DNA of 64,000 nucleotides from a bacterium (lineage in GTDB: Bacteria; Patescibacteriota; Patescibacteriia; JACQRZ01), in assembly GCA_030688365.1 (NCBI GenBank), contig JAUYIE010000004.1, positions 5,931-69,930 of the forward strand, written 5' to 3'. This document shows, piece after piece, positions 4,277-64,000 of the stretch. The number at the start of each line of letters is the position of its first letter. Position 1 is the first letter of the stretch. The notes below the pieces were generated by a model. It was not told the DNA's origin and searched no databases. It was given only the letters and a program-made list of their open reading frames with translations. Both the position numbers and the translations under genes were made by a program.

Positions 4277-4329
4277 ATTTCATATATGTTATTGACCTCC
4301 TAAAAAGGAGGCCAATAACGGCTTATCAG

Positions 4330-8398: not shown

Positions 8399-9436
8399 TC
8401 AAACTGACTGTCTTTCTCTATGAAGAGCAAACCACCCTAACAGTATCATAATCAACACAAGGATACCAAATCCTATCAACTTTTGGGTGCTTTGTAGAAA
8501 AAGAGCACTGATGCCAAAAATACTGGCAAAAGCATAAAGAACCAATACTGCCATTCGTTGAGATAATCCTGCGTCAAGAAGTCGAAAATGGATATGCTTG
8601 CGGTCGGCTTTAAACGGTGAACGTCGCTCTAAAATCATTCTACGGATAATAACCCACACTGCGTCCAATATGGGAATACCTAGGATCAGCATAGTTGTCG
8701 CAAGTTTTGCACCAGAAACAATAGCGAGAATTCCGAGAAAAAATCCTGCAAGTAGACTGCCACCTTCGCCCAAAAAAATTGAAGCAGGATGAAAATTGAA
8801 TACCAAAAAACCAGCGTATGCCCCGGCTACAATAACCGCCAGAAGAGCGGTGGGAAAATTTACAAAAAAGAATAAACTCAACAGTGTGATAATCACTGCA
8901 TTGATAATGGTCATACCAGAGACAAGCCCGTCCAGTCCATCAAGAAATTTGGTCGTATACATTACAACCATCAACCAGGCAAATGTGAGTAGATCTGACC
9001 ATGCACCCAAAAAAAATGTTCCACCAAATGGTATTGATATCTGATCAATACCTATACCTCCTTTAACAATGACACAGGCCGCGATCATAGGAAAAAAGAT
9101 CTGTTGCCATGGTTTAAGGTCAAATACATCATCAAGCATTCCCCCAATCACGAGCAACATACCAGCGCCAGCGATCAAAATAATATCCTGTCCGGCTACA
9201 TGTGTACCGATGATCTGTGGCCATGATAACGGCGCATAAAGTATATATAAGATCACACTTACCCAAACCCCTACATAAATTGCAACTCCGCCCCACAAAG
9301 GAATTGGCCTTTTGTGAATTTTTCTTTCAACAAGAGGTTTGTCTGTAATATCAAAACGTACCGCAATGGCTCGTATGATTACAGTAGCGAGCATACTCAA
9401 TATAAATGCCACTAATGCCACCAAAAAATACATCAT
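8399..9436 (-). CDS. Glycosyltransferase family 4 (MraY/WecA-like polyprenyl-phosphate sugar-phosphate transferase)
   Basis: About 10 TM helices. Conserved DDxxD-like and FLDGLDGL motifs typical of MraY/WecA. Its start overlaps the cysS stop by 4 bp. Confidence 0.8.
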   Translation of the reverse strand: MMYFLVALVAFILSMLATVIIRAIAVRFDITDKPLVERKIHKRPIPLWGGVAIYVGVWVSVILYILYAPLSWPQIIGTHVAGQDIILIAGAGMLLVIGGMLDDVFDLKPWQQIFFPMIAACVIVKGGIGIDQISIPFGGTFFLGAWSDLLTFAWLMVVMYTTKFLDGLDGLVSGMTIINAVIITLLSLFFFVNFPTALLAVIVAGAYAGFLVFNFHPASIFLGEGGSLLAGFFLGILAIVSGAKLATTMLILGIPILDAVWVIIRRMILERRSPFKADRKHIHFRLLDAGLSQRMAVLVLYAFASIFGISALFLQSTQKLIGFGILVLIMILLGWFALHRERQSV

Positions 9437-10881
9437 ACGGGCCGTATCGTTGATCCATTAGCTGTATCCTCCACAACAAAACCACGTGACGTAATTTCAT
9501 CACGGAGACGATCTGATTCAGCCCATTTTTTTGATTTCCTTGCTTTTTCACGTTCATTTGCAAGGATTTGGATATCGGATGGCACCTCAAATGTCTTCAA
9601 ATCTGGACGATTCACGCGTAAACCGAACACTGTATCAAATCGTAATATTTCATCATAAATTGCCAAATAATCTCTTGCCGATAGGTCTTTTTCTGTCTTG
9701 ACACGTTTTAAAAAATCAAAAAAGACTGCCATGGCCTTTGGCATATTCATATCATCAGATACAGCATCGCTAAACTGTTGTGTCACTGATGTCAGTAAGT
9801 CAGATAGGTGTGTACTTATCTTTGAGCGAATAACCGCATCTTGCTTTTTTTCACGAATGGTCTGCACCAGATTGCATAGATTTTTATACCCTGCTTTTGC
9901 CCCGTCCAACGCTTCCCATGTAAAGTTCAATTGCTGACGATAGTGTGCCGACAAATAAAAAAATCTCAATTCAAGTGGGTCATATCCTTTTTTTATAATT
10001 TCTTCTATGGTAATGAAGTTTCCGAGACTTTTGGCCATCTTGATACCATTGACGGTCAAAAACGCATGATGCACCCAAAAATGAGCCAATGGCTTACCTG
10101 TCGCAGCCTCACTCTGGGCAATCTCGTTTGTATGGTGAACTGGTATGTGGTCAATACCACCAGTATGGATATCAAACGTTTCTCCTAAATATTTCATACT
10201 CATTGCTGAACACTCAATGTGCCAGCCAGGAAAACCATCTCCCCACGGACTTGCCCAATACATAGTATGGTTGGAAAAATGCCCGACTCGCTTAAACCAT
10301 AATGCAAAATCATGAGGGTTTTTCTTATATTCTCCCGTTTGCACTTCCGCACGTACAGCTGTTTTTTTATCGTCCAGCTTTTGTCTAAATAGACGACCAT
10401 AGGCCTTAAATGAGTCAATATCAAAATATACCGCCTCTGGTGTATCATACGCAAAACCTTTTTTAATAAGTGTTTGCACAAGTCCGATTTGTTCGGGGAT
10501 ATGATCAGTCGCTTTACAAATTATATGAGGACGCTCTATATTCAGGGCATCCATTGATGTAAAAAAATGATCGGTAAAAAATTCTGCAACATCCCATACC
10601 GTTTTACCAAACTTTATCGCGCCTTTTTCCATTTTATCTTCTCCTTCATCCTCATCAGAAGAAAGATGTCCAACATCAGTGACATTTTGAACATGTTTTA
10701 CATCATACCCTGACCACTCTAAAATTCTACGTAAAATATCATCACCGACGTACTTTCTACCATGGCCAATGTGTGCAAAATCATACACCGTCATACCACA
10801 AGTATACATACCCACTTTCCCTTTTTTCATTGGGACAAATTTCTCTTTTTTATTTGACCCGGTATTGTATATTTTTAGCAT
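9433..10881 (-). CDS. cysS: Cysteinyl-tRNA synthetase
   Basis: HIGH (FAHIGHGR) and KMSKS (KMAKSLGN) motifs. Zn-binding Cys residues. 482 aa. Confidence 0.9.
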
Positions 10882-10882
10882 A

Positions 10883-12772
10883 TTATGGTTGTACTAATCC
10901 TTTTCCATTACCTACTGGATCAAAATCTAGGTTTGTTGTCAAGGGTGGACGCTTGAGTGATACCTTACTTTGATTCACGCTGTCCTGTGCAGATATGCCG
11001 GTATCACTAGTCAATGTCATTAATTTTTGGGCATAAAACGCTGTCGGTGTAATTGACAATGAAAATTGAGCATCCAACACAGGAGTGTTTGATGACACGT
11101 GATCAATGGTCCATGAGACGGTTCGTGTAGCAGTATCGTACGCTATCGTACCCATATCCATACGCTCTTGCCCCACCCATTCAACGTCCGATGGTAACAC
11201 GGTAGTAATACGAACTTGATCGAGATCATGAAATGAATTGGTTATTTCCCAAATCAACACATAGGTTGTCATTTGTCCGATGATCGGAGGGAGTGGACCT
11301 GAACCAATCGGGCTTTGAGAATCACTGAAATATCTCGCCTCAACTTTGATTGCCAGATCGGAATTCACTAATACCTTTACCTTACCTGTCTTAATTTCTA
11401 ATGTTTCACCGGTACTTCCAGCCCCTACATAAGGGGTAACGTGGTATGTGGCATGTGCAAAACCGGTAAATGAAAATTCTGCCGTTGAATCAAGCAAACC
11501 ACTTTTTATCAAATTTTGTATTGCATCACGACTATGCACTGGTACTCTAAATGACAACTGTCCCGTATCACCTGGTTTGATTTGTTTAAGGGCGGATGTT
11601 CGATTACTTGACCACTCCAAAGTTTCATGACTAAAAGTCCCGGTGCCAATATTTTGGATTGCAGACCAATTGATAAATAATCCATCCAACATGGCATCAA
11701 CAGAGACGTCAGTAAGTGTGTATTTTCCTTGATTTTCATAGTTAATCAAGACATTTAACATATCTCCTTGATTGACTGTTGTCGTTCCTTGCGCTTTGTT
11801 GATGCGAAATTGCATTACCAGATCTCCTTGACTCACCTCGGTGGAGAATCTCTCTTCGTTTTCCATTGTGAAATGTCCATCTTGATTAAATCCCCATCTG
11901 ATCATCAAATCAGTTGTTCCATGTTTACTTTCTGAATCAAATTTTCCGTCAATTTTAAGATGCCCTTGCTTGCTTGTGGAATCAATGTTTCCAAGAAGTG
12001 TTGCCGATGACCAGCTATTATCCTCATCTATCTGCGGTGTTGTTTGATCTATCGTAAATCCCACTGGAAGATCAACGATTAACTGTACCGTATCTTTTTT
12101 GTATATATCAGAAAAATCATAGTATGTAATCTCATAGTGAGCATCATCACCGGGGTTTATTTCTGTAGGTCCTTCAATTGACGAATGTAGTAGTGATTTC
12201 TCTATCGTTACTGACATAACATCCTCCTGGATAAATGGCGAATTGAAGTTTGCCGGAGTATAATTGATACTTGCTTTCAGTTCTCGTTGATCTCCTTGAT
12301 TACCTCGCCATTGTCCTTTGATCTGAATGATGCCGCTTTCTCCTGACTTCAAAAGACCTAATTGCCAGCGGTTATCATGCTCTGTATCTGTTGCGGGATC
12401 AGCAGAAATGATTGTAAATTCTTGCGGATATTCGGTGGTAATCATTACATTTGTCATTGGGTTTGCGTCTGTATTTTTGTAAGTAAGCAGATATGTGACC
12501 TCCTCACTAGACGATACAATACGAGGTCCATCTATCTTTATTGTTACCTTTTCCGGTTGAAATGCTTTTGTAGGACTAAATATACTATATCCTGACCATG
12601 CGGCACCCATTAACATAACAAAAAAAAGTATAACACCCACCGTCCACCACCCGCGTTTAGATGACGGTCGACTAATGGTGTTCATATCATCATTTTCCTC
12701 ACCCAACCCCTCATAAATAGATTGAATACCACGAGATTGTTGTACGGCTGTAAATTTTTTTAATTTTGACAT
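10883..12772 (-). CDS. Large secreted or membrane-anchored protein of unknown function (repeated beta-rich domains)
   Basis: 629 aa. N-terminal TM anchor. No recognisable catalytic motif. Confidence 0.55.
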   Translation of the reverse strand: MSKLKKFTAVQQSRGIQSIYEGLGEENDDMNTISRPSSKRGWWTVGVILFFVMLMGAAWSGYSIFSPTKAFQPEKVTIKIDGPRIVSSSEEVTYLLTYKNTDANPMTNVMITTEYPQEFTIISADPATDTEHDNRWQLGLLKSGESGIIQIKGQWRGNQGDQRELKASINYTPANFNSPFIQEDVMSVTIEKSLLHSSIEGPTEINPGDDAHYEITYYDFSDIYKKDTVQLIVDLPVGFTIDQTTPQIDEDNSWSSATLLGNIDSTSKQGHLKIDGKFDSESKHGTTDLMIRWGFNQDGHFTMENEERFSTEVSQGDLVMQFRINKAQGTTTVNQGDMLNVLINYENQGKYTLTDVSVDAMLDGLFINWSAIQNIGTGTFSHETLEWSSNRTSALKQIKPGDTGQLSFRVPVHSRDAIQNLIKSGLLDSTAEFSFTGFAHATYHVTPYVGAGSTGETLEIKTGKVKVLVNSDLAIKVEARYFSDSQSPIGSGPLPPIIGQMTTYVLIWEITNSFHDLDQVRITTVLPSDVEWVGQERMDMGTIAYDTATRTVSWTIDHVSSNTPVLDAQFSLSITPTAFYAQKLMTLTSDTGISAQDSVNQSKVSLKRPPLTTNLDFDPVGNGKGLVQP

Positions 12773-51903: not shown

Positions 51904-52080
51904 TTAAGACTTGTCTGCTAGCCTATCTTTAATGAAACCATTTTTCTTCATAAAATTGACGACCGGTTTTGCACATATTTCACACAATTCCTTTCCATTA
52001 CTAAACCATCCTATGCGGACATATATCACGGCACCGTCGGAAATCTCTTTATGACAAATATCACACTGATGTGTCGTCAT
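51904..52080 (-). CDS. Small zinc-ribbon protein (CxxC...CxxC)
   Basis: MTTHQCDICHKE...CEICAKP, 58 aa from the ATG at 52080. Lies between the hicB and vapC modules. Confidence 0.45.
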   Translation of the reverse strand: MTTHQCDICHKEISDGAVIYVRIGWFSNGKELCEICAKPVVNFMKKNGFIKDRLADKS

Positions 52081-52087
52081 AGACAAG

Positions 52088-52140
52088 CATGTTAATGTTT
52101 AGAATCCAAACGTAGCACACGAAAAAATTGAAGGCAAATG
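52088..52140. repeat. Copy 1 of an approximately 53-bp direct repeat (catgttaatgtttagaa...acgtagcacacgaaaaaa.tga.ggcaaatg), about 85 percent identical to the copy at 52925-52978
   Basis: Direct comparison of the two segments. Together they bracket vapBC. Confidence 0.7.
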
Positions 52141-52197: not shown

Positions 52198-52617
52198 TTA
52201 TACATCCTTTGGTTCGACACGTCTTACCTTTAACTTTTCAAACTCCTTGTCGTAAGATACCACCACGCCATTCTTGATTTCAAGTACCTGCGCGGCTATC
52301 AAAGTGTCAATGAATTTAACTGAATTCCCTTGATACAATTCGAGAGCTTGGAAAAAATCTCCCCCGTCTTTTATGCTCAAATACGACATTGCCACGATAC
52401 CTCCCAATAATTCAACAACATCTTCTTTTTTGAGTTTGTAGAAACTCAAACATGTCCACACAAACTCTGCCAATACGAGTTTGGAGGTGGTTGCTCGAAG
52501 TGTCCCTTCCTGTATGCGCTCGAATAGTCTTTCACAGTCTTTCGCCATCGCTACGTCATCTTTGACGACAAACCGAAGAAAGATATTGGTGTCAAGGAAG
52601 TATCTATTTCCTTGCAT
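52198..52617 (-). CDS. vapC: PIN-domain toxin VapC
   Basis: FLDTNIF N-terminus and conserved acidic residues of the PIN fold. Overlaps the vapB stop. Confidence 0.85.
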   Translation of the reverse strand: MQGNRYFLDTNIFLRFVVKDDVAMAKDCERLFERIQEGTLRATTSKLVLAEFVWTCLSFYKLKKEDVVELLGGIVAMSYLSIKDGGDFFQALELYQGNSVKFIDTLIAAQVLEIKNGVVVSYDKEFEKLKVRRVEPKDV

Positions 52618-52843
52618 ATTTTTTCTCCATACTTGCCCGTGCTTTGAGCGGATTGGTGCGTTTTTTAGGAGTAATGCGACGACCGGACGAAACGAAGTTA
52701 TTCAAGGGAATGAGACGCGCTGCCTTGTTCCCTTTTTCAATCTGCACAGCTACGCGACTATTTTTTCCTAAACGAAGCATATCCCTGATTTCTTTAGGGA
52801 TCGTAATCTGCCCTTTTTGTGTAACGGTGGTATGGTAAGGCAT
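52604..52843 (-). CDS. vapB: AbrB/SpoVT-type antitoxin VapB
   Basis: QKGQITIPKEIRDMLRL swapped-hairpin motif. 14-nt overlap with vapC. Confidence 0.8.
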   Translation of the reverse strand: MPYHTTVTQKGQITIPKEIRDMLRLGKNSRVAVQIEKGNKAARLIPLNNFVSSGRRITPKKRTNPLKARASMEKKYARK

Positions 52844-52908: not shown

Positions 52909-52924
52909 GCGGATCAATGAGAAA

Positions 52925-52978
52925 CATGTTAATGTTTAGAACATTAACGTAGCACACGAAAAAAACTGAGGCAAATGT
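52925..52978. repeat. Copy 2 of the approximately 53-bp direct repeat; contains a perfect palindrome GTTAATGTT-TAG-AACATTAAC
   Basis: 9-bp inverted arms with a 3-nt spacer, located just upstream of the vapBC promoter and just downstream of the RT1 stop. The palindrome is degenerate in copy 1. Confidence 0.7.
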
Positions 52979-52979
52979 G

Positions 52980-53984
52980 TTACCCTGTCTCATCCAGTAG
53001 CCAATGATCGTTGAGTATACTTGTCCTTATTTTGTGGGTATTCCCATGTGATAACAGTCCGAGATATGACTGAAGCGTCGCTTCGTTAGAATCATGAGAC
53101 AACTTTTTGAACATTCGCCGTCTTGTTGTCGCCCGCAGTACATGATGATCGGCAAAGTGCACCCAGCCCAAATAATCTACCCCTGACGCAATGGTACGAA
53201 TGCTGACTTTATTGGGATGCAATGAAAGCTTGAGCTTGTCTGATAAAAAATCCTGTATCGGATCAATAGTGCGCTCGAGTATACTTCTATCCTGTGACAA
53301 CAGAACAAAATCATCGGCATATCGGATATAATGTGGCACTCGCATATCGTGCTTGATGTATTGGTCAAATAAATTCATGTATATATTGGCAAACAGTTGC
53401 GATGTAAGATTCCCCAATGGAAGTCCTTTATCACTAGACGATTTAAAACTCCCGATTATTCTTGAAAGCAACCACAATATCTTTCTGTCAGGGATATAAT
53501 CCTCCAATATACAATATAAAACGGCATGATCTATGCTCGCAAAGAATTTTCGTATATCACATTTGAGAACGTAACATGTACGAGTATTGTTCCTGCTTAC
53601 CTTGCACGAGTAAGATGTAAATCGATCCATTGCGCTGTGAGTACCTTTGCCCACACGAGCTGAAAATGAATCAGCGATAAACTTTGTTTCAAAAAAAGGA
53701 TATAATATACGGTGAAGAGCGTGATGTACCACCCGATCGCGCACCTGCGCCTTGTGGATTTCCCGTGATTTTGGATCATTGATATAAAAACGTGTATACG
53801 CGCCATGCATGTACTCACCTGACAATAGCTCCTCATGCAACGCATTGATGTTTTCAAACAGATGATCTCGAAACGCGCGGACATCCCACTTGTTCCGTTT
53901 CCCACATTCAAACTCGAGCCACGCTTCAATCAAATTGTCGTGCGAAATAATATCTTCAAATGTATGTCCCAACAATATTTTCAT
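52980..53984 (-). CDS. Diversity-generating retroelement reverse transcriptase (DGR RT1)
   Basis: RT domains 1-7, with the DGR-specific LPLGNLTSQ (GxxxSQ) replacing the group II intron QGxxxSP, plus YIRYADDFV. 334 aa. A cognate TR/VR pair lies nearby. Confidence 0.9.
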   Translation of the reverse strand: MKILLGHTFEDIISHDNLIEAWLEFECGKRNKWDVRAFRDHLFENINALHEELLSGEYMHGAYTRFYINDPKSREIHKAQVRDRVVHHALHRILYPFFETKFIADSFSARVGKGTHSAMDRFTSYSCKVSRNNTRTCYVLKCDIRKFFASIDHAVLYCILEDYIPDRKILWLLSRIIGSFKSSSDKGLPLGNLTSQLFANIYMNLFDQYIKHDMRVPHYIRYADDFVLLSQDRSILERTIDPIQDFLSDKLKLSLHPNKVSIRTIASGVDYLGWVHFADHHVLRATTRRRMFKKLSHDSNEATLQSYLGLLSHGNTHKIRTSILNDHWLLDETG

Positions 53985-54002
53985 AAAAATCCATTAAGGA
54001 AT

Positions 54003-54010
54003 CCCCCCCC
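54003..54010. repeat. Poly-C homopolymer (8 nt) in the divergent RT1-avd1 intergenic region
   Basis: cccccccc read directly. The equivalent tract in DGR2 is 10 nt. Confidence 0.9.
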
Positions 54011-54031
54011 AAGGCGTCACAAATTCCTATT

Positions 54032-54388
54032 TTGCAAAAAGCCGTAGAAACATACAAACTATGGCATTTGTTCTTACAGCAGATGCCTCGTCTTACTCGA
54101 TTTAGTCTTGGTACAAAAATCGACATATTGTTTACCGACACGTTACAGCTCATGCTCTCTGCGAAATACGCACCACGAGAACAAAAGCTGGAATACATAC
54201 GAACATTGTGCACCAACATAGATGCCATCAAATTCTTTTTGCAAATCGCGTTTGAGCTCAAGGCATTAAGCGCTAAAAAATATTCCAGTGTGTCCATACC
54301 TCTGGAAGAGATCGGAAAAATGGTCGGCGGGTGGAAAAAACAGCTGGAAAAAGAAAATCCTGCCACAAAAACTTCATGGCAGGAATGA
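54032..54388 (+). CDS. avd: Avd-like accessory variability determinant (four-helix-bundle protein, TIGR02436-like), predicted TTG start
   Basis: About 118 aa helical protein with C-terminal IPLEEIGKMVGGWKKQL, matching the Avd/23S-IVS four-helix-bundle family. Paralog at 62879-63295. Adjacent to RT and TR. Confidence 0.8.
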   Translation: MQKAVETYKLWHLFLQQMPRLTRFSLGTKIDILFTDTLQLMLSAKYAPREQKLEYIRTLCTNIDAIKFFLQIAFELKALSAKKYSSVSIPLEEIGKMVGGWKKQLEKENPATKTSWQE

Positions 54389-54399
54389 TACGAGAGAGT

Positions 54400-54523
54400 T
54401 GCTCGAACGCAAGGAAACGATAGTTGTCATTCCAATCACCAGCCAGCTTGTTGAGGTTGAGCTTACGCTTGTCGTTGTTCCTGTTCAACACAGGAGCACA
54501 CAGATCACCGTTCTCATTGCGAA
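54400..54523 (-). repeat. DGR1 template repeat (TR1), 124 bp
   Basis: Aligns base-for-base (offset +499) with 54899-55022. All 20 mismatches are T in TR on the plus strand (A on the minus strand) versus C/G/A in VR. Confidence 0.85.
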
Positions 54524-54785
54524 AATGCACGGAATATCATCTTTGACACCACCCTTTGACTCGCCATCTGGCACATTCTCGGGGTTGAATCGTATTCGGG
54601 GCATTTCAGCCCGCCAATATTCCGCACCAAGTCTCTTCGTAATCGCGAAGCAATCGGGCACACGCTGTATGGTAACAAAAAACGCCATACATTCCGGCTT
54701 CCCAAAAAGCTCCAGAGTTCGACCGCCATGAAGTCGTAACGACATGGATACTTCTCTACTTTCCAAAACTCAGTATATCACGCTG

Positions 54786-54821
54786 AATAAAAAATCCCTT
54801 AATAGTTTGTTCTATCAAGGG
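54786..54821 (-). terminator. Rho-independent terminator downstream of the DGR1 target gene
   Basis: Minus strand: CCCUUGAUAG-aacaaa-CUAUUAAGGG stem (one G-U pair) followed by AUUUUUUAUU. Confidence 0.5.
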
Positions 54822-54876
54822 AAGATAAGGGTCTAAAAATTCAAATTCTATTTCTAAACACTGAGGGACCCAGAGT

Positions 54877-55518
54877 CTAAGTGCCTTCCGAAGAAACCTG
54901 CTCGAACGCAAGGAAACGATAGTTGCCACTCCAATCACCAGCCAGCCCGTGGAGGCCGAGCAACCGCCAGTCGTTGAGCCCGTCCAACACAGGAGCACAC
55001 AGAACACCGCGCCCATCGCGAATTTCAATACCCATCAAACAAACGATTGGATATTTTAATTGTTCATCGGGGTTGTTTATGGCGTACTGTAATATTCTGG
55101 CAGGAGTAGCCTTGATCAAACCTTTTTCTTCGATCTTTTTTTCTGCATCTTCAGTCGAAATTTTTCCCAGATCAAGGATACGGACTTTTAACATTTCTAC
55201 ACCGACAGCTGGATCTATCGGAAACGTTTTTTCATTGATGTGACTGTTTACATAATAAAAATTTACGATTTTGATTTGATCGGAAAAACTCTTGTTGTTA
55301 TCAACTATTATGAGTCCAGAATTATCAACTTTCTTCGAAATTTCATTCAATGAACCGACAATAATTTGAGCAACCTTTTTCCTGCGGTCTGTGTCTTTCA
55401 AATACGCGTCTATGTGGTCATCTGTACCACCTTCATCCAGAATATCATTAAAGATAATTTTCACTACCTCAAAGATCTTTCCGAACAGTTTCAGATAACC
55501 ACTTGTTTTTTTAGCCAT
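54877..55518 (-). CDS. DGR1 variable (target) protein, 213 aa, no signal peptide; VR encodes the C-terminal roughly 41 aa
   Basis: Full ORF. The C-terminus IRDGRGVLCAPVLDGLNDWRLLGLHGLAGDWSGNYRFLAFEQ corresponds to the TR-encoded NENGDLCAPVLNRNNDKRKLNLNKLAGDWNDNYRFLAFEQ. Confidence 0.85.
   Translation of the reverse strand: MAKKTSGYLKLFGKIFEVVKIIFNDILDEGGTDDHIDAYLKDTDRRKKVAQIIVGSLNEISKKVDNSGLIIVDNNKSFSDQIKIVNFYYVNSHINEKTFPIDPAVGVEMLKVRILDLGKISTEDAEKKIEEKGLIKATPARILQYAINNPDEQLKYPIVCLMGIEIRDGRGVLCAPVLDGLNDWRLLGLHGLAGDWSGNYRFLAFEQVSSEGT
54899..55022 (-). repeat. DGR1 variable repeat (VR1)
   Basis: See TR1. The 3' end (low coordinate) has a 26-nt invariant block (putative IMH) ending 22 nt before the stop codon. 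Confidence 0.85.
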
Positions 55519-55724
55519 TTTAATGTACTCCTATTTTCGCCTACTCCTTGCTTTTCCCCTATTTTAGGGTTAGACCTAGAGCTTGCACTTATATATAACA
55601 ATACTAAGATACTTGCATATTTTACCGATTTTGTCAAGATTATGACCACCAAAAGCTTATATTTCGAAAGTGAACGAGTATTATTGAGTATGAGAAAGAG
55701 CTGACAGATATACTGAAGGGCTGT

Positions 55725-55842
55725 TTGATTTCTCTTTTAAAAATTTTATGAGCGAGTCAAGTGTTGGGAAGAAAAGTTGAAACGAGCGAATAGAAGTGAG
55801 GAGGGAGACTTACCTACTCGTTACCACCACCGTCGCCGAACG
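55725..55842. mobile_element. MITE-like element, copy 1: 118 bp with perfect 19-bp terminal inverted repeats (TTGATTTCTCTTTTAAAAA)
   Basis: Left TIR 55725-55743, right TIR 55824-55842 (exact reverse complement). The core is about 80 percent identical to the reverse complement of the core at 61784-61883. Confidence 0.7.
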
Positions 55843-55891
55843 CTTTTTAAAAGAGAAATCAAATACCCCGCTCAAGCAGGACAAACACTCC

Positions 55892-56650
55892 CTATCTCCC
55901 CTTCACCTCAATCCCCACCGGACAATGATCTGATCCCATGATATGTGGTAAGATCGCCACGCTTTTTATAGACGGTAAAAATGATTCTGATACGCAAAAA
56001 TAATCTATCCGCCAGCCAATATTTCTCTGACGTGCCCCTGCCATATAACTCCACCATGTGTACTTATCAGGACTCTCATCAAAGGCGCGGTAACTATCTA
56101 CAAACCCAGCAGAGACAATATTATCAAATCCACCCCGTTCTTCATCAGTAAATCCCGCATTACGACGATTGCTTGCTGGGTTAGCCAAGTCTATCTCTTT
56201 ATGAGCAACATTGAGATCTCCCCCAAAGATCACCGGCTTTTTTGCTTCCAGATATTTGAGATACGCCAAAAAATCTCGATCCCATTGCATACGATATGAT
56301 AGGCGTACGAGATCGCGACGTGAGTTGGGGGTGTACACCGTCACAAGATAGTATTGTGGAAATTCAAGAGTGATGACTCTCCCTTCTTGATCATGACCCG
56401 CGATACCGATACCATGCGCCACGCCGATTGGTTTTTTTCTACTAAAAATGGCAGTCCCCGAGTACCCTTTTTTCTCCGCTGAATTCCAATAATGATGGGG
56501 GTATTCTTTCAAAATCTCATCCACCTGCGATTGGTGCGCTTTTGTTTCTTGGATACACAAAACATCGGGTGCTTCCGCATCCACAAAATCCAAAAAACCT
56601 TTTCCGAGAATAGCTCGGATGCCATTTACATTCCACGAAATAATTTTCAT
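55892..56650 (-). CDS. xth: Exodeoxyribonuclease III (AP endonuclease)
   Basis: [14 protein letters not shown]-terminus and EEP-fold catalytic motifs (IQETK, GDLNV, DH). Confidence 0.9.
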
Positions 56651-56656
56651 AATAGT

Positions 56657-58831
56657 TTATTCTTCCTGTTTCTCGGGAGTGGGTTCGCCATCAGCACCTG
56701 TAGGTTTTTCCCATGACGCGTAGGTGCACTCCGGATATTTATCGCATCCATAAAACATCTTACCGCGTTTTGTTTTCTTTTCTACAACCTGACCTTTACC
56801 ACAATCGGGACATACGATACCCAGTTTTTTCAAACTCAATGAGCGGATGCTTTTGCATTCAGGATATTTACTGCATCCCAAAAACTTCCCAAACCGTCCT
56901 GTCTTGATGACCATCGGCGCTCCGCACTTATCACACGGTTCCGCTTCTTCAATCGCTTTCTTATCTTCCTCTTGTTCTTCTTTGGATTCAATCGGCTTGG
57001 TATTTTTACATTCCGGATAGCCGGTGCAAGCAAAAAATCTTCCAAAGCGACCAATCTTACTCACCATCGGCTTACCGCATTTATCACATACTTCATCGCT
57101 CACCTCTTCCGTGAGTTCCTTTTTTGAGAGCTCTTTATCTTTTTCTCCGAGTAATTTTTTGAACGGGGTATAAAACTCGCGAATGACCGGTACCCAATCC
57201 TTTTTACCATTTGCGACTTCATCGAGATCATCTTCCATGCGAGCGGTAAACTCGTAATCCACGATCTGTGGAAAATGCTCCATCAAAATATCATTCACCA
57301 GCGTTGCCATTTCTGTCGGCTTAAGGCGTCCTTCTTCTTTGATGACATATTTGCGCTCCACGATCGTGCTGATCGTCGGTGCATAGGTGGATGGACGACC
57401 AACACCATGTTCTTCAAGTACTTTGACCAGCCCTGCTTCACTGTATCGTGCAGGTGGTTTGGTAAAATGCTGCTCTGGATCAAATTTTAAAAGATCAAGG
57501 GCGTCATCTTTCTTCACAGCTGGAAGCAGTACTTCTTCTCTATCGGTCTGATACACGCGGGTAAATCCATCAAATTTTTCAATCTGACCGGTAGCACGAA
57601 AAACATACCCGGTAGACTTCTTACTTTTGAGAGTATCAATATCAATCGTCGTCGCTTCATATAGCGCATCCGGCATCTGACTCGCCACACTGCGTCGCCA
57701 TATCAGGTCATAAAGCTTGAATTGAGCGTCAGTGAGGTGTGCTTTCACTGATTCAGGTGTTCGCGACACGAGAGTCGGTCTTATGGCCTCATGTGCCTCT
57801 TGAGCGAGCTTGGATTTTGTCGCATATTTCTTTTCTCCTTTAGCATACTGTGTACCGTATTCAGATTTGATCACTTCTTGTGCTTCAGACAAAAACTTCT
57901 CGGAAAGGTTTACCGAGTCAGTACGCATATAGGTGATATATCCACCATCTTCTTCCGAACCTGCTTCAATACCTTCATAGAGTTGTTGAGCAAACATCAT
58001 GGTCTGCTTTGGTGAAAATCGTAAGCGACGGTTTGCGTCTTGTTGCAACGTAGAGGTAGTAAACGGCGTTGGCGGTTTGCGTGACGTATCTTTCATCGTG
58101 ACTTCTTTGACTGTGTAGTCCGCGCTTTCCAATTTTTTTAAAATATCTTGTGCATCTTTTTCATTTGAAATCTCAAACTTATCAAGCGTCTTTCCATCAT
58201 AGGCGTGCAAACTCGCATGAAATGAAACCGTGGTCTTGTCAGCAACATCAATCTCAATAGTCCAATATTCTTGCGGTACAAACGCTTCTATTTCCTTTTC
58301 ACGTTCCACAACCAACCGCACGGCGACGGATTGCACGCGTCCGGCGGATAGACCTTTGGCTACCTTCCTCCACAAAAATGGCGAGAGTTCATATCCCACC
58401 AGACGATCAAGCACACGACGCGCTTGTTGCGCATCTACCAAATCAAGATTTATCTGGCCTGCGTGTTCCAAGGCATCCATGACTGCCGTCTTTGTAATTT
58501 CATGAAATGCAATACGCTTGATCTTATCTTTTGGTACTTTCAAAATCTCTTGCAAATGCCATGAAATAGCTTCCCCTTCACGGTCTTGATCAGTTGCGAA
58601 ATAGACATCATCAGACGCTTTGGCAAGTTTCTTCAACTCGGTCGCGCGTTTTTGATTTGCTTTGGGGATAACATAATGCGGGGCGAAATCATGTTCAATA
58701 TCTACCCCCATCTCGCTTTTTGGAAGATCGCGAATATGACCAAAAGAAGACTCCACGCGGTAGTCTTTGCCTAAAAATTTGCTGATTGTTTTTGCTTTCG
58801 TTGGAGACTCAACGATGACCAAATGTTTCAT
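56657..58831 (-). CDS. topA: DNA topoisomerase I
   Basis: Toprim N-terminus (LVIVESPTKAK). Catalytic Tyr region. Three C-terminal C4 zinc ribbons. Confidence 0.95.
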   Translation of the reverse strand: MKHLVIVESPTKAKTISKFLGKDYRVESSFGHIRDLPKSEMGVDIEHDFAPHYVIPKANQKRATELKKLAKASDDVYFATDQDREGEAISWHLQEILKVPKDKIKRIAFHEITKTAVMDALEHAGQINLDLVDAQQARRVLDRLVGYELSPFLWRKVAKGLSAGRVQSVAVRLVVEREKEIEAFVPQEYWTIEIDVADKTTVSFHASLHAYDGKTLDKFEISNEKDAQDILKKLESADYTVKEVTMKDTSRKPPTPFTTSTLQQDANRRLRFSPKQTMMFAQQLYEGIEAGSEEDGGYITYMRTDSVNLSEKFLSEAQEVIKSEYGTQYAKGEKKYATKSKLAQEAHEAIRPTLVSRTPESVKAHLTDAQFKLYDLIWRRSVASQMPDALYEATTIDIDTLKSKKSTGYVFRATGQIEKFDGFTRVYQTDREEVLLPAVKKDDALDLLKFDPEQHFTKPPARYSEAGLVKVLEEHGVGRPSTYAPTISTIVERKYVIKEEGRLKPTEMATLVNDILMEHFPQIVDYEFTARMEDDLDEVANGKKDWVPVIREFYTPFKKLLGEKDKELSKKELTEEVSDEVCDKCGKPMVSKIGRFGRFFACTGYPECKNTKPIESKEEQEEDKKAIEEAEPCDKCGAPMVIKTGRFGKFLGCSKYPECKSIRSLSLKKLGIVCPDCGKGQVVEKKTKRGKMFYGCDKYPECTYASWEKPTGADGEPTPEKQEE

Positions 58832-58843
58832 AGCTCTTTGTTA

Positions 58844-59746
58844 TTATATCTTTACATAATACATACTTCCGACGTTTCGCACTACCCCTCGCATTTCCAG
58901 CATCAGCAGTGCGCTACTGACTATGTGGCTTTCACGCTTACATATTTGGATGAGAGTGTCAATATGGACGGGATCACTGCTCATGACCGCCAGTATACTT
59001 GCCTCAACCTCATTTTCCGGGTTACTCTCGGGTCTGGCGTATTCTTTGGGCAATGATAAAAACTCAAACGTGTCAAAAATATCTTGTAGACACGTGACAA
59101 GCTTAGCACCTTTTTTGATCAACATATGAGGACCTTCGGAAAGCGGATCAGTGAGCGGGCCGGGTAAGGCAAACACTTCCCTATTTTGTTCCAACGCACA
59201 CTGCGCGGTGATTAGCGACCCTGATCGTGCCAGTCCTTGAGCAACCAAAACACCAAGAGACATACCGGCGATGATACGATTACGAAGTGGGAAAGAATAC
59301 TTGGCAGGATGCATACCGGGTGGTGATTCTGATACCACCACTCCGCCGTTTTCTATAATACGATGCGCCAAACCCAGATGATCAGCCGGATACATACTCT
59401 CGTCATCAACACCACCACCCACTACAGCGATAGTCGTACCACCGACTTCTAGCGTGCTTTCATGCGCTAACGCGTCCACGCCATAGGCAAGTCCACTCAC
59501 CACAACAAGACCGCTTCGTGCCATATCATGCACCAACGGCGGTAAAATATTTTTACCATAGACACTCATCTTGCGACTACCTACCACGCCAATACCGTGC
59601 CACGGTTGTTTTGGCCATGTCCCACGATACCACAGCTTCTCCGGCGCGCCATGTATTTCTTTCAAAAGTGGCGGATAATCAGGATCGTCAATACTGCATA
59701 CCTTGATGCCTTGTTTTTGTTCTTGCACCTGCGAGTCAACGAGCAT
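58844..59746 (-). CDS. dprA: DNA processing protein A (DprA/Smf)
   Basis: Rossmann-like DprA core (VVVSGLAYGVDALAHESTL...IAVVGGGVD). C-terminal winged helix. Confidence 0.85.
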   Translation of the reverse strand: MLVDSQVQEQKQGIKVCSIDDPDYPPLLKEIHGAPEKLWYRGTWPKQPWHGIGVVGSRKMSVYGKNILPPLVHDMARSGLVVVSGLAYGVDALAHESTLEVGGTTIAVVGGGVDDESMYPADHLGLAHRIIENGGVVVSESPPGMHPAKYSFPLRNRIIAGMSLGVLVAQGLARSGSLITAQCALEQNREVFALPGPLTDPLSEGPHMLIKKGAKLVTCLQDIFDTFEFLSLPKEYARPESNPENEVEASILAVMSSDPVHIDTLIQICKRESHIVSSALLMLEMRGVVRNVGSMYYVKI

Positions 59747-59763
59747 GGAACCATGATAAAAAA

Positions 59764-60327
59764 TTACAAACTCAATTCAAGTCCTTTTTTGATAGTTTCA
59801 AAAACTTCTGGAAGCGCTTTTTTTTCTGTCGCAGAAAACTTACCCAAAACAAACTTTTCTCCTGATATTGTCACTGGTCTTTCAGATGCGACACCAATAC
59901 GCATACGACTAAATTCTTTCGTACCGAGCAAATCAATTATATTTTGCACACCATTGTGTCCTGCCGATGAACGGTTGTGACTTATTTTTATTTTTCCAAA
60001 TGGGATATCTAGTTCATCATGGCTAATCCAAATGTCTTTTGTGATATCGATCGTGCGATGATAGGAAAGATATTTTTTTACCGATGTGCCGGAAAGATTC
60101 ATGAACGTCAATGGCTTGAGAAATGTTATTGACTCATGCTTACCATCATCCCTTGTATATTTTGTTTCGTATGCGATATAAGTCTTGTCTTTTGAGATGC
60201 TTGGTTTTTCGATACGGCCTTCTTCCAGCCATTTTTCCATCAAATAATCTACAGCAAGAAAGCCCGCGTTGTGGCGGGTCGTTTCATACTCTGTGCCAGG
60301 ATTTCCTAAACCTACGATAAGTTTCAT
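59764..60327 (-). CDS. pth: Peptidyl-tRNA hydrolase
   Basis: MKLIVGLGNPG..YE.TRHNAGF signature. Confidence 0.9.
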   Translation of the reverse strand: MKLIVGLGNPGTEYETTRHNAGFLAVDYLMEKWLEEGRIEKPSISKDKTYIAYETKYTRDDGKHESITFLKPLTFMNLSGTSVKKYLSYHRTIDITKDIWISHDELDIPFGKIKISHNRSSAGHNGVQNIIDLLGTKEFSRMRIGVASERPVTISGEKFVLGKFSATEKKALPEVFETIKKGLELSL

Positions 60328-61694
60328 GCCGATTTCTTTTTACTTTTTTCTTCGGTGACGACCATGACGGGCGTCCCTTGGAAACTATACAACTCGCGAA
60401 GACGATTTTCCAAATACCGAAGATACTCATATCTAATACTAGCACGGCTGTTGACAGAAAGTATAAACGTCGGCGGACAGCCCAGTCGCTGTTTGATGCC
60501 AAAAATGCGCGGTCGTTTGCGTCCCATCGGCCAGATCGGCGGTTGACGTGTCATTGCTGTTTTGAGAAACGCAGTGAGTTCTTCTTGTGGAATTTCTTTC
60601 TCGCGCTCTTTCTGCACTTCAATTATTATATCAAGAATTTTCTTAACGCGCTGTTTTGTGAGGGCGGACACAAAGATATCCGGCGCCCATTTTATAAACT
60701 CAAAAAACTTATGAAAATATTTTTTGTACGCATCACTACTTTTGACTGTCTTTTCTTCCACCAAATCCCATTTGTTTACTACCAACACGATACCCGCACC
60801 GGAAGAGACAGCAATATCAGCAAGACGGCTTTCCTGTTTTGACGCGGTAGTCATGGCATCCAGTACCAAAAGTGCTACATCTGCTTTTTCAATATTTTTG
60901 ATACTGCGTTTAACTCCTTCGTATTCTATACCATGCTGAACTTTGCTTTGCTTACGGATACCGACGGTGTCGATAAGGATGATTGGCTGATCTTCGTACA
61001 CAATAATAGTGTCATGCGGTTCACGAGTGGTATGGGCGATAGGACTGGCAATGACGCGTTCTTCATCAAGAATCGCATTGAGCAAGGATGACTTACCGAC
61101 GTTTGTACGACCAACGATAGCAACTTTGATCGGTGCTTTTGTCGGTGCGGGTGTAGCGACGCGTTTGAGTAATGGATGTACTTCGTCCAAAAGGTCGCCA
61201 ACTCCTCGTCCGCTTGCGGCTGAAACACTATATCCGGAACCGATACCCAGTTTGTTCCAATTTTGTGAAGATAAAGCAATGTGTTCTTTTTGTTTGTCTA
61301 TTTTATTGATTACCAAATACACAGGCGTCTTGGTTGCTTTTTGGATGACTTTGAGATACGCACGGTCATCAGGATGGATGTCTTCTTTGCCATCTACGAT
61401 AAACAAAATAACATCTGCTTTTTTTAGCATGGCAAGCGCGTGGGCATAAGTTTTTTCCTCAATCTCATCAGTAGGCTTTGGCACAAAACCACCGGAGTCT
61501 GCCACCTGAAAGGTAAAATCACGCCAGTTGCCGATCCCATAGTTCACGTCACGCGTAGTTCCCGCGTCAGACGAAATAACGGCCTTTTTCTCTTCTATCA
61601 AACGATTAAACAGTGTTGATTTGCCAACATTAACCCGTCCTACAAGAGCAACAAGCGGGTATGGATTCTCTTTTTGTATGGTGCGGACTGGCAT
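60324..61694 (-). CDS. der: Ribosome-biogenesis GTPase Der (EngA)
   Basis: Two tandem G domains (GRVNVGKSTLFN; GRTNVGKSSLLN) and a KH-like C-terminus. Confidence 0.9.
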   Translation of the reverse strand: MPVRTIQKENPYPLVALVGRVNVGKSTLFNRLIEEKKAVISSDAGTTRDVNYGIGNWRDFTFQVADSGGFVPKPTDEIEEKTYAHALAMLKKADVILFIVDGKEDIHPDDRAYLKVIQKATKTPVYLVINKIDKQKEHIALSSQNWNKLGIGSGYSVSAASGRGVGDLLDEVHPLLKRVATPAPTKAPIKVAIVGRTNVGKSSLLNAILDEERVIASPIAHTTREPHDTIIVYEDQPIILIDTVGIRKQSKVQHGIEYEGVKRSIKNIEKADVALLVLDAMTTASKQESRLADIAVSSGAGIVLVVNKWDLVEEKTVKSSDAYKKYFHKFFEFIKWAPDIFVSALTKQRVKKILDIIIEVQKEREKEIPQEELTAFLKTAMTRQPPIWPMGRKRPRIFGIKQRLGCPPTFILSVNSRASIRYEYLRYLENRLRELYSFQGTPVMVVTEEKSKKKSA

Positions 61695-61764
61695 ATACGA
61701 GCATTAAAGCATGAAATTGGGAGAAAAGCGAGAGGAAAGAGGTGGTGTATCTCGAGCAGGGTAT

Positions 61765-61902
61765 TTGGTTCTTCTTTTAAAAAGCGTTCGGCAACGGTAC
61801 TGGTAATGAGTGTGTTAATCTCCCTCCTCACTTCTATTCGCTCATCTCAATATTTTCATCGTACATTTGACTCGCTCATAAAATTTTTAAAAGAAGAACC
61901 AA
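61765..61902. mobile_element. MITE-like element, copy 2: 138 bp with perfect 19-bp TIRs (TTGGTTCTTCTTTTAAAAA), inverted relative to copy 1 and overlapping the RT2 3' end
   Basis: Left TIR 61765-61783, right TIR 61884-61902. The last 15 codons of the RT2 ORF (FGSSFKNFMSESNVR) are encoded by element sequence. Confidence 0.7.
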
Positions 61903-62899
61903 ATACCTGCCATCTTACGTCACTCAAACCCCGTCTTATCTTCGCAGTGTTCCCGTGACTCAATAATCCCATATATGACTGCATTTGAGCAGGATCATTC
62001 TTTCCTGCTTTGATATGACGGAACATCCTCTTTTTTGTCGCTGTCCTCAACACTCGATGATCAGGAAAATGTACCCAACCGAGGAAATCAACACCCGATG
62101 AAAATGTTTTGAGAAAAAGCTTGTTGGGATGAAGCTGAAGATGTAGCCGTGAAGATAGAAACTCCTGAATCATCGGGACGAGTGTCTCTAACCATTCTAT
62201 GTCAGATGACAATACCACAAAATCATCAGCGTAACGTATGTAATACCGAGTGTGGGCGGTATGTTTCATAAACTGATCCAATTCATTCATATACACGTTG
62301 GCAAACACCTGTGATGTAAGATTGCCCAGTGGTAAACCGACACCGCGATGAGTCGTATGGAAACTACCGATGATGCGATACAAAAGATCAACAATCCGAG
62401 AATCGGGTATTGATAATTTCAATATATCAATAAGTACCTCATGCGATATAGACGCAAAAAACTTGCATATATCGCACTTGAGTGCCCATGCGGTACGAGT
62501 ATGATTCCTTGAAACGACATATTCCATAGAACGGAATCGATCAAGCGCTTTATGCGTTCCCTTTCCATCTCTGCATGAATACGAATCATGAATAAACCGC
62601 GTATCAACATACGGATACAATATACGATAAATTGCGCGATGGAGTACTCTGTCACGCACCGACGCCTTATGTATCTCCCGTGGTTTTGGATCATTGATGC
62701 GAAACGCCTGGTATGCACCGTGTCTGTATCTATTGGTCGCAAGGTCATGATGCAGTATAATAAGATTACTCATGAGATTCTGCTCAAATTCAATAACATC
62801 ACTGCGACAGGATTTTCCTATACGAAATTCTCGCCATGCCTCAAGGAGATTCTCAAGAGAAATAATATCTTCATACGTATGAATGAATTTTCCGGACAT
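61856..62899 (-). CDS. Diversity-generating retroelement reverse transcriptase (DGR RT2), paralog of RT1 with an element-derived C-terminal tail
   Basis: LPLGNLTSQVFANVYM and YIRYADDFV motifs. About 60 percent identity to RT1 across the full length. Confidence 0.9.
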   Translation of the reverse strand: MSGKFIHTYEDIISLENLLEAWREFRIGKSCRSDVIEFEQNLMSNLIILHHDLATNRYRHGAYQAFRINDPKPREIHKASVRDRVLHRAIYRILYPYVDTRFIHDSYSCRDGKGTHKALDRFRSMEYVVSRNHTRTAWALKCDICKFFASISHEVLIDILKLSIPDSRIVDLLYRIIGSFHTTHRGVGLPLGNLTSQVFANVYMNELDQFMKHTAHTRYYIRYADDFVVLSSDIEWLETLVPMIQEFLSSRLHLQLHPNKLFLKTFSSGVDFLGWVHFPDHRVLRTATKKRMFRHIKAGKNDPAQMQSYMGLLSHGNTAKIRRGLSDVRWQVFGSSFKNFMSESNVR

Positions 62900-63295
62900 A
62901 TCACTAATGTTACCCCCCCCCCGAGGCTTTTACCAGTCCTGCAAAAGATAAAGTCAGTATATATCCTCTGGCATGGATATTATCAGGTACTGCCAAAAAC
63001 TCATCGTTACAGTATTGGGCTTCGCATTGATACTTTATTCGTAGAGCTCATTGAAGCCACCTCCATAGCAGGATTCCTCTCTCGTGAAGAAAAACAACCA
63101 CTCGTGCGCATCGCTATCAGAAAAAATGACACCATAAAAATCTTTCTCATGGTGCTCTGGGAAACAGGATCACTAGAAACAAAACGATATGTCACACTTT
63201 CACTACCCCTAGAAGAAATCGGCAGAATGTTGGGCGGATGGAACGGACAACTACAAAAACAAAACTCTCCCGTCATTGCGAGGGGAGAGAAATGA
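62879..63295 (+). CDS. avd: Avd-like accessory protein (paralog of avd1), start uncertain (ATG 62879 overlapping the RT2 start on the other strand, or CTG 62939)
   Basis: C-terminal LPLEEIGRMLGGWNGQLQKQN aligns with avd1 IPLEEIGKMVGGWKKQLEKEN. N-terminal (L)QKIKSVYILWH aligns with avd1 (L)QKAVETYKLWH. Confidence 0.7.
   Translation: MNEFSGHITNVTPPPRLLPVLQKIKSVYILWHGYYQVLPKTHRYSIGLRIDTLFVELIEATSIAGFLSREEKQPLVRIAIRKNDTIKIFLMVLWETGSLETKRYVTLSLPLEEIGRMLGGWNGQLQKQNSPVIARGEK
62913..62922. repeat. Poly-C homopolymer (10 nt) between the RT2 start and the avd2 core
   Basis: cccccccccc read directly. Lies inside the avd2 ORF if translation starts at ATG 62879, and upstream of it if translation starts at CTG 62939. 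Confidence 0.9.
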
Positions 63296-63301
63296 AGAGA
63301 G

Positions 63302-63436
63302 TTGCGACGGGCAAACAACAAGCGATTGTCGGGATTGAGCATGTTGTCGGGATGAATGTAGTTCGTGTTGAGCCAGAACTCACCATCGTTGAAATTCACG
63401 TTGAACACGTTGGGATCGCCATCGGAGTCCGTAATG
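63302..63436 (-). repeat. DGR2 template repeat (TR2), about 135 bp, starting 7 nt after the avd2 stop
   Basis: Aligns at offset +498 with 63800-63934. 15 of 16 mismatches before the ragged 5' end are T in TR (plus strand) versus N in VR. Confidence 0.8.
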
Positions 63437-63515
63437 TATACCATGCCATCTGTGCCACTGCCTTATGATTACTCACAAAGCTGTATCGAATCTGCGATCA
63501 ATAATCGCCCAGCAT

Positions 63516-63543
63516 AATATACCAAGTATCTTCGTTTTTTGAA
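63516..63543 (-). promoter_or_regulatory. Candidate promoter for TR2 RNA (minus strand TTCAAA-16-TATATT), about 70 nt upstream of the TR2 5' end
   Basis: Read from the sequence. Weak match to the consensus. Confidence 0.25.
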
Positions 63544-63727
63544 TAATCTCAATCACCACACTACCCCCAATCGTAATCAAGGATATTCTGGATGAAGGGA
63601 TACTGGCTTCGGCCGCGGGAAACCATAATCTCCCGCACGATTCACCTAGCGCCACAATCAGTATACCCTTAATTTTCCAAAAAAATATTCCTCGCCATAA
63701 TTATGGTTTGGAATATTATTCAATATT

Positions 63728-63742
63728 AGGTCTAAGAGCTCG
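63728..63742. other. GC-rich hairpin (GCTCGC-ttc-GCGAGC) about 60 nt downstream of the VR2 3' end
   Basis: Perfect 6-bp inverted repeat. A second hairpin (GCGGGA-n10-TCCCGC) lies at 63621-63642. Confidence 0.35.
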
Positions 63743-63795
63743 CTTCGCGAGCAAGTAACAAAGTGCAGAAGAGTTAATCCTCCAAAAACTAAGAG

Positions 63796-64000
63796 CTACT
63801 TGCGACGGGCAAACAACACGCGAGCGTCGGGATCGAGCATGCGGTCGGGATGAATGTAGTCCGCGTAGAGCCAGAACTCACCACCGTCGAAATGCACGTT
63901 GAACACGTCGGGAGCGCCAGCGGAGTCCGTAATGGTATCCATGGCGAGAATAGCCCAGTTTCTGTCGTCTTTTTCTGCTTTTTTCAAAACGACTTCTATT
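63796..64000 (-). CDS. DGR2 variable (target) protein, C-terminal part only; the ORF is open to the window edge and VR2 encodes the last roughly 45 aa
   Basis: C-terminus ITDSAGAPDVFNVHFDGGEFWLYADYIHPDRMLDPDARVLFARRK matches the TR2-encoded ITDSDGDPNVFNVNFNDGEFWLNTNYIHPDNMLNPDNRLLFARRN. Stop TAG at 63796-63798. Confidence 0.7.
   Translation of the reverse strand, partial: IEVVLKKAEKDDRNWAILAMDTITDSAGAPDVFNVHFDGGEFWLYADYIHPDRMLDPDARVLFARRK
63800..63934 (-). repeat. DGR2 variable repeat (VR2)
   Basis: See TR2. Asn (AAC/AAT) codons in TR correspond to D/H/Y/A/R codons in VR. Confidence 0.8.

Follow-up and report, generated by a model that had tools for sequence, protein, structure and literature searches.

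The window, meaning the whole 64,000-nucleotide stretch of DNA analyzed here, comes from a CPR bacterium near Uhrbacteria and is ordinary chromosomal core carrying dnaB, recR, ftsZ/ftsA, aminoacyl-tRNA synthetases, and type IV pilus genes. A palindromic non-coding repeat of approximately 150 to 165 nucleotides is present in this Patescibacteria (CPR) genome in two copies of opposite orientation. Along the minus strand, the order of features is DGR2, copy 2 of the repeat, der, pth, dprA, topA, xth, copy 1 of the repeat, and DGR1. Both DGRs are genuine because the mismatches between TR and VR fall overwhelmingly at TR adenines. The avd genes lie opposite in strand to the target and RT in both DGRs, as they do in the related CPR loci L017 and L042. 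All coordinates are listed in Table 1.

Table 1. Positions of the repeat copies, the neighboring genes and DGRs in the window, and repeats found at other CPR DGR loci.
Feature	Position	Strand	Remarks
Copy 1 (E1), whole unit	55711..55877	+	delimited by homology with copy 2; covariance-model score 194.6 bits
E1 left arm	55718..55743	+	perfect portion 55724-55743 (TTTGATTTCTCTTTTAAAAA)
E1 core	55744..55843	+	100 nt, non-coding
E1 right arm	55844..55869	+	perfect portion 55844-55863
Copy 2 (E2), whole unit	61751..61916	-	inverted relative to copy 1; covariance-model score 192 bits
E2 arm	61760..61783	+	24/24 complementary to 61884-61907
E2 arm	61884..61907	+	starts one codon after W330 of RT2
Housekeeping block between copies	55892..61694	-	der, pth, dprA, topA, xth
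der	60324-61694	-	
pth	59764-60327	-	
dprA	58844-59746	-	
topA	56657-58831	-	
xth	55892-56650	-	
DGR1	52980..55518	-	adjoins copy 1
DGR1 target gene	54877-55518	-	contains VR 54892-55022
DGR1 TR	54393-54523		
DGR1 avd	about 54083-54388	+	
DGR1 RT (RT1)	52980-53984	-	
DGR2	61856..64000	-	adjoins copy 2; target gene extends past the window end
DGR2 RT (RT2)	61856-62899	-	
DGR2 avd	within 62588-63295	+	
DGR2 TR	63302-63445		
DGR2 VR	63800-63943		
F2 hairpin elements	L017 3965-4225; L013 330-588; L042 7127-7410		261-284 nt, perfect 19-21 nt arms
Long inverted repeats bracketing a DGR segment	L042 3070-3316 / 7548-7793; L017 3688-3873 / 10704-10889; L013 50-238 / 7067-7255		
Direct repeats flanking DGR cassettes	L044 4341-4484 / 8715-8857; L058 2132-2359 / 7045-7272; L073 4200-4274 / 7061-7135; L059 several		

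The inverted repeat of copy 1 is perfect over 20 nucleotides and 92% matched over 26 nucleotides. An earlier sequence-only reading had noted the 19-mer TTGATTTCTCTTTTAAAAA at 55725-55743, which is present on the plus strand and does have an exact reverse complement. That reading placed the right arm at 55824-55842, 20 nucleotides too far to the left. The actual site is 55844-55862, so that the enclosed core is 100 base pairs instead of 80, and an element end at 55842 cuts off the right arm. The arms of copy 2 are perfectly complementary over their full length, with a spacer of 100 nucleotides as in copy 1.

The two copies are mutually inverted and 80-84% identical (84% over 151 nucleotides; 82% over 153 nucleotides ungapped), which confirms the kinship with 61765-61902 that had been noticed. 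Homology continues past the arms for about 7 nucleotides on one side and about 8 nucleotides (GCTCRAG) on the other, so that each unit measures about 165 nucleotides. Beyond this the flanks are unrelated, and the boundaries of homology are sharp at two non-homologous sites. The GCTCAAG end of copy 1 is directed toward xth and the GCTCGAG end of copy 2 (61751) toward der. The GCTCRAG end therefore points to the housekeeping block, and the opposite end to the DGR, in both copies. ORFs within the units reach only 7-10 codons and are unconserved between the copies. As had been claimed, copy 1 is non-coding; it is flanked by the xth stop (55892) and the DGR1 target start (55518).

Copy 1 starts 14 nucleotides past the xth stop and ends 192 nucleotides ahead of the DGR1 target start. 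Copy 2 ends about 56 nucleotides before the der start, and the 3’ part of the RT2 ORF overlaps its opposite end. Residue W330 is the last of RT2 that is conserved with RT1, and copy 2 begins one codon later. Because copy 2 abuts the conserved end of RT2, the RT2 ORF ends inside the element. It enters copy 2 for 17 codons, with a tail that finishes in RWQVFGSSFKNFMSESNVR and a stop at 61856. RT1 ends six residues after the tryptophan equivalent to W330. The native C-terminal tail and stop codon of RT2 have evidently been lost and replaced by copy 2 sequence.

Perfect inverted repeats of at least 16 nucleotides (likewise at least 19 nucleotides) within 400 nucleotides occur exactly twice in the window, and these are copies 1 and 2. 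One hundred composition-preserving shuffles contained no such inverted repeat (mean 0, maximum 0). The word TTGATTTCTCTTTTAAAAA, allowing up to three mismatches, has five matches in the window against 0.11 expected. An assembly artefact or a chance inverted repeat is effectively refuted. Short-read Logan contigs of the same sample do break inside copy 2, as an artefact might lead one to expect, but the independent assembly L001 spans copy 1 entirely and is identical to the window. The halves of copy 2 on separate Logan contigs also share arm variants specific to copy 2 that are perfectly complementary, and the shuffles give nothing comparable. The element itself accounts for the short-read assembly breaks at copy 2. 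These lie at the start of L001 (window 61847) and the end of L011 (window 61821), which overlap by about 27 nucleotides in the copy 2 core. A second Logan break, at the start of L011 (about window 64523), is 54 nucleotides upstream of the DGR2 target start and shows no similarity to the element.

Orthologous sites were located in several relatives. L009 (GCA_964357385.1; TopA 86% identical) aligns through topA and xth, and its homology ends at the xth stop; the xth-to-sod interval there holds unrelated sequence in place of copy 1 and DGR1. L099 (Der 76%, Xth 88%) has a complete der-pth-dprA-topA-xth block without the element and without a DGR, with 45 nucleotides upstream and 1 nucleotide downstream available. 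L100 has the housekeeping block and 179 nucleotides upstream of der, again without the element. A der leader of about 45-50 nucleotides is common to the window, L099, and L100, and copy 2 lies just outside of it. The DGR2 ortholog in L012/L010 is 75.6% identical at the nucleotide level across TR, avd, and RT. In this ortholog the RT is followed directly by HigB/HigA, and the element is found on neither side. Sorted by site, the element is absent downstream of xth (L009, L099), upstream of der (L099, L100), and downstream of RT (L012/L010).

Judged from these alignments, both copies sit exactly at synteny breakpoints and do not belong to the conserved surroundings of xth, der, or the DGR. The sequence-only reading had named as the alternative a regulatory structure conserved in relatives at the same locus. 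This is ruled out by the orthologous junctions of two related species, which are without the element. The copies mark two points where DGR islands joined the conserved housekeeping operon. Third-codon identity between the window genome and the L009/L012 species is 50-53%. The copies are 80-84% identical to each other, so either the duplication postdates that split by far or constraint acts on the unit. The unit was evidently copied at least once within this genome after divergence from the nearest sequenced relatives.

The arms of copy 1 and copy 2 differ at three positions (A>G, T>C, C>T), each of which is matched by a change in the partner arm. Compensation at all three positions has a chance probability of about 2e-5. 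Since all three differences are compensated, each copy keeps a perfect stem, of 20-24 base pairs, despite them. The core contains an internal 6-base-pair helix (copy 1: 55781-55786 / 55817-55822) with one compensated change, AACGAG/CTCGTT versus GATGAG/CTCATT. This brings the double-sided changes to four between the only two sequences compared, three in the closing stem and one in the internal helix. On this comparison the arms evidently co-evolve, with each copy keeping its perfect stem. The compensated arms point to intrastrand hairpin pairing as the property that is maintained, rather than a fixed sequence bound by a transposase.

Differences between the copies cluster strongly: runs of 28, 25, and 20 nucleotides without any change are separated by two variable stretches (permutation P ~0.00015), and the 25-nucleotide core block GAGCGAATAGAAGTGAGGAGGGAGA (55784-55808) is the same in both copies. 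This clustering suggests either gene conversion or a functional constraint on blocks of the interior, a pattern not required of a selfish repeat in decay. Folding of the units was much better than that of shuffled sequences, with z values of −4.1 and −4.5 as RNA and of −3.5 and −6.0 as single-stranded DNA. Both G.U-type pairs fall on one strand, the plus strand in copy 1 and the minus strand in copy 2, and on the opposite strand they are A.C mismatches. Their placement is a weak hint as to which strand acts. The predicted interior folds differ between the two strands, and two sequences cannot fix the interior fold.

The same observations could be drawn on for a structured RNA that is present as two paralogs, whether as a small non-coding RNA gene or as an element acting in cis. 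The stem and internal helix would be under selection and the unpaired blocks functional. The four compensated pairs, the three invariant blocks of 20-28 nucleotides, the confinement of the G.U-type pairs to one strand, and the z values for RNA folding are all consistent with such an RNA. Set against it are the absence of the element at the same loci in the nearest relatives and from 0.8 Mb of CPR loci, the opposite orientation of the copies relative to neighbors that run in one direction, and an interior fold that differs by strand and is not determinable from two sequences. At the gathering score, Rfam 15 matches in the window are five tRNAs only, and over 55600-56000 no meaningful Rfam match appears even at E <= 10. 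No promoter, terminator, or small ORF inside the unit is common to both copies. Template switching in quasi-palindromes can also produce compensated arms without selection. An RNA of this kind is possible but on the whole unlikely.

A scan for intrinsic terminators, defined by a compact GC-rich stem, a small loop, and a T-run, reports none for the unit in either copy. A terminator-like hairpin is present on the minus strand at 55864-55883, right after the xth stop. It is formed in part by the outer end of copy 1, with the T-rich arm as its tail, and has no equivalent in copy 2.

The copy number of two, which comes from the 64-kb window plus the public collections, is a lower bound for the genome. 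No third copy was found in the window by BLAST, and an unfiltered covariance-model search finds only copies 1 and 2. A marginal covariance-model match at 2084-2223 (E = 0.04) is ordinary coding sequence. The best-conserved core block, GAATAGAAGTGAGGAGGGAG, has no exact match in the GTDB species genomes or in IMG/VR. Its seven matches in JGI metagenomes share only the purine-rich 20-mer, have unrelated flanks, and were attributed to chance. The second block, TTTTATGAGCGAGTCAA, has seven IMG/VR matches that are likewise all due to chance; in two cases a phage ORF begins with this word. Phage and plasmid collections (blastn 'distant') gave nothing meaningful. The covariance model R1 was run against 82 loci (807 kb), made up of the 80 DGR loci with the closest RT plus the synteny loci, with a best E value of 0.62, and BLAST also found no copy in them. 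Across the searched collections, nothing resembles the element in sequence.

Some features of a MITE are present. The unit is small (below about 600 base pairs) and non-coding, has terminal inverted repeats, and varies in presence and absence among relatives. No transposase, integrase, or recombinase was found by Pfam scans among the approximately 60 genes of the 64-kb window. The window likewise holds no autonomous element or cognate transposase with matching terminal inverted repeats, for which the sequence-only reading had proposed a search, and no other sequence with matching terminal repeats. Neither copy is flanked by a target-site duplication, as no direct repeat of at least 2 nucleotides occurs at matching flank positions under several choices of boundary. 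A duplication of 2-3 base pairs could have decayed at 16-20% divergence. The description of copy 1 as a repeated, probably mobile, MITE-like element is upheld for a discrete unit bounded by terminal inverted repeats, present at two sites and absent in relatives. It is not borne out for a target-site duplication or a transposase. That description was to count as refuted if only two copies existed with no target-site duplication, and as far as the data reach this is the case.

Integron attC sites are imperfect palindromes with RYYYAAC / GTTRRRY core sites that lie next to cassettes and an IntI integrase. The ends of the present element are GGGCTGTTTGAT and ATCAAATACCCC, the sequence GTTTGAT does not fit GTTRRRY, and no tyrosine recombinase is encoded in the window.

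The lack of a target-site duplication and a transposase is also what a passive by-product of rearrangement would leave. The repeat would then be an inverted duplication from the joining or inversion of a DGR island, with no present function or mobility, and the only consequence of its copies today would be that the 5.9-kb block can invert by homologous recombination between them. Exactly two inverted copies at two synteny breakpoints bracketing a conserved block fit this account. It leaves unexplained the near-perfect palindrome in each copy, the compensation of arms within a copy, and the sharp boundaries of the unit. The orientation of xth relative to sod is moreover the same in L009 as in the window, so no inversion is visible on that side. 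We regard such a scar as rather improbable.

Repeats at other CPR DGR loci bear on the position of the two copies. A scan of 84 CPR loci identified 16 perfect inverted repeats of at least 16 nucleotides with loops of 30-300 nucleotides, in 12 loci. One group, termed F2, has arms that begin with GCCTCGGGC, conserved ends of about 49 nucleotides, and divergent interiors. A 1-nucleotide insertion in F2 is mirrored in both arms. In L017/L013 the F2 element lies upstream of the DGR target at a distance of 284 nucleotides, and in L042 it follows the RT stop by 131 nucleotides. Relative to the direction of the DGR these two versions are in opposite orientation, the same geometry as that of copies 1 and 2. 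F2 resembles the window element in its perfect terminal inverted repeats of 19-21 nucleotides, concerted arm change, position at a DGR border, and opposite orientations. It differs in having no sequence similarity, a larger size, a GC-rich composition, and unconserved interiors in place of invariant blocks. A further set of inverted repeats, 'F3' (L077, L066, L026), lies inside ORFs and was dropped as an analogue.

The DGR segments of L042, L017, and L013 are bracketed by long inverted repeats of 186-247 nucleotides that are 95-100% identical. Their first 50 or so nucleotides, which are homologous in L042 and L017, look like the 3’ terminus of a gene. The orientation of the DGR relative to that gene is opposite in the two loci, which suggests an invertible or rearranged segment. 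Direct repeats of 75-228 nucleotides and 78-94% identity flank the DGR cassettes of L044, L058, L073, and L059. In L058 and L073, the downstream copy starts 70-92 nucleotides past the RT end.

These arrangements allow the repeat to be read as an element that borders DGR islands or serves in their recombination. The cassettes would move or invert as units, DGR1 ending at copy 1 on its target side and DGR2 at copy 2 on its RT side; the partner copies would have been lost (DGR1) or would lie beyond the window (DGR2). Both copies lie exactly where lineage-specific DGR islands meet conserved genes, and the copy upstream of the target is inverted relative to the copy downstream of the RT with respect to DGR direction. 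The unrelated F2 family has this geometry, and the inverted and direct repeats around other DGRs are in keeping with it. Several results argue the other way. The DGR2 ortholog lacks the element on either side, and a search of 80 related DGR loci with the covariance model gave no match. Nowhere downstream of RT1 does the window contain a partner copy, the far edges of the DGR1 island show no att-like partial matches to the element ends, and the copies here bracket housekeeping genes and not a DGR. Hairpins lie directly at a border in only 3 independent loci of 54-84, and all scanned loci were DGR-centered. The known DGR hairpin, a short GC-rich repeat just 3’ of VR/IMH (PMC5758913), is unlike the element, which is at least 700 nucleotides from VR1 and VR2, is AT-rich, and has a 100-nucleotide loop. 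A border function of this kind is unlikely.

Were it true, one would expect a third copy, oriented as copy 1 is, upstream of the DGR2 target just past the window, and hairpins should be enriched at DGR borders across CPR genomes. L011, which stops 54 nucleotides upstream of the start codon of that target, contains no sequence similar to a third copy. A broader form, in which DGR cassettes of this clade are carried in or rearranged by hairpin-bounded units whose arms co-vary as folded single-stranded DNA ends, appears quite improbable. It is kept open because of the F2 geometry and the 186-247-nucleotide inverted repeats of L042 and L017/L013. Transfer of DGRs has been inferred in the literature from phylogeny and GC content, with no mechanism given (PMC5758913). 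If hairpins do mark DGR borders in CPR genomes, they would offer a concrete handle on the movement of DGRs between and within genomes.

The explanation preferred here, to which we assign roughly an even chance, is that the element is a lineage-specific, low-copy, non-autonomous hairpin repeat of the MITE-like or small-palindromic kind that was acquired after the split from known relatives. It is described as a hairpin repeat of MITE-like general kind and not as a demonstrated transposon, and its mobility is unproven. The insertion-like appearance of the junction at the RT2 3’ end supports this explanation. The unrelated CPR hairpin family F2, with its conserved ends, divergent interiors, and mirrored insertion, offers an analogy. 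Against the preferred explanation stand the number of copies, two only, within 6 kb of each other, and the position of both next to DGRs, which for an element inserting at random would be mere coincidence.

The two copies landed at gene ends or between genes, one just beyond the conserved part of RT2 and the other just past the xth stop. Because the arms co-evolve, we infer that a strand of the unit pairs with itself, in single-stranded DNA or RNA, and that the unit acts or propagates in this hairpin form rather than through two independent protein-binding ends. Mobilization in trans by an enzyme encoded elsewhere, or spread by recombination, may have produced the copies. The neighbors are all on the minus strand with short gaps, and therefore both copies are probably transcribed inside long mRNAs. 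In these transcripts a stem of 22-26 base pairs would form whichever way a copy is oriented, and the resulting hairpin might be a site of RNA processing or insulate the housekeeping operon from the DGRs.

Correia/NEMIS of Neisseria, RUP of Streptococcus pneumoniae, and ERIC of enterobacteria are small palindromic or MITE repeats with tens to hundreds of copies, and are the described elements nearest in kind. The present element is like them in being about 100-170 base pairs long and non-coding, with terminal inverted repeats of 20-26 base pairs, a location at gene ends or between genes, and a long hairpin if transcribed. It is also present in one genome and absent in related ones, as they are. 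It is unlike them in having no TA or other target-site duplication, two known copies, and no cognate IS or transposase found, and in its compensated arm substitutions and unusually conserved interior blocks. The element matters mainly for annotation, as a small lineage-restricted palindromic repeat. To our knowledge, there are hardly any descriptions of small hairpin repeats from Patescibacteria, and the reduced genomes of these bacteria are generally regarded as poor in mobile elements. A family with co-evolving arms would inform the mode of propagation, by way of a folded single strand and not of two independent protein-binding ends.

The hairpin/cruciform of the DGRs of Bordetella phage BPP-1 and Legionella (PMC5758913, PMC3240598) is likewise a DGR-associated inverted repeat with a proposed folded DNA form. 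That structure is short and GC-rich, with a small loop immediately 3’ of the VR. The present element, AT-rich and with its long loop, is instead upstream of a target start or downstream of an RT, far from the VRs.

Other repeats occur around the DGR1 island and at the corresponding site in L009. A 64-nucleotide direct repeat, 81% identical and containing an 8-base-pair hairpin, is found at 52077-52140 and 52914-52977 and brackets a toxin-antitoxin cassette. The cassette lies immediately past the RT1 stop codon and consists of a MazE/AbrB-type antitoxin (52604-52843, minus strand) and a PIN toxin (52198-52617, minus strand). Insertion of the cassette looks to have duplicated sequence downstream of RT1. 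Downstream of xth in L009, positions 3330-4490 contain three copies of a repeat that starts with the promoter-like TCTTGACA followed by TAGCCT/TAGTCT. One of these copies is inverted, which produces a 123-nucleotide inverted repeat at 100% identity (3767-3889 / 4325-4447). The same region has three copies of a 39-nucleotide motif beginning with ATCRTCAARGATGACCAAAAGGAG, with no Rfam match. These L009 repeats occupy the xth-to-sod hotspot that carries copy 1 and DGR1 in the window.
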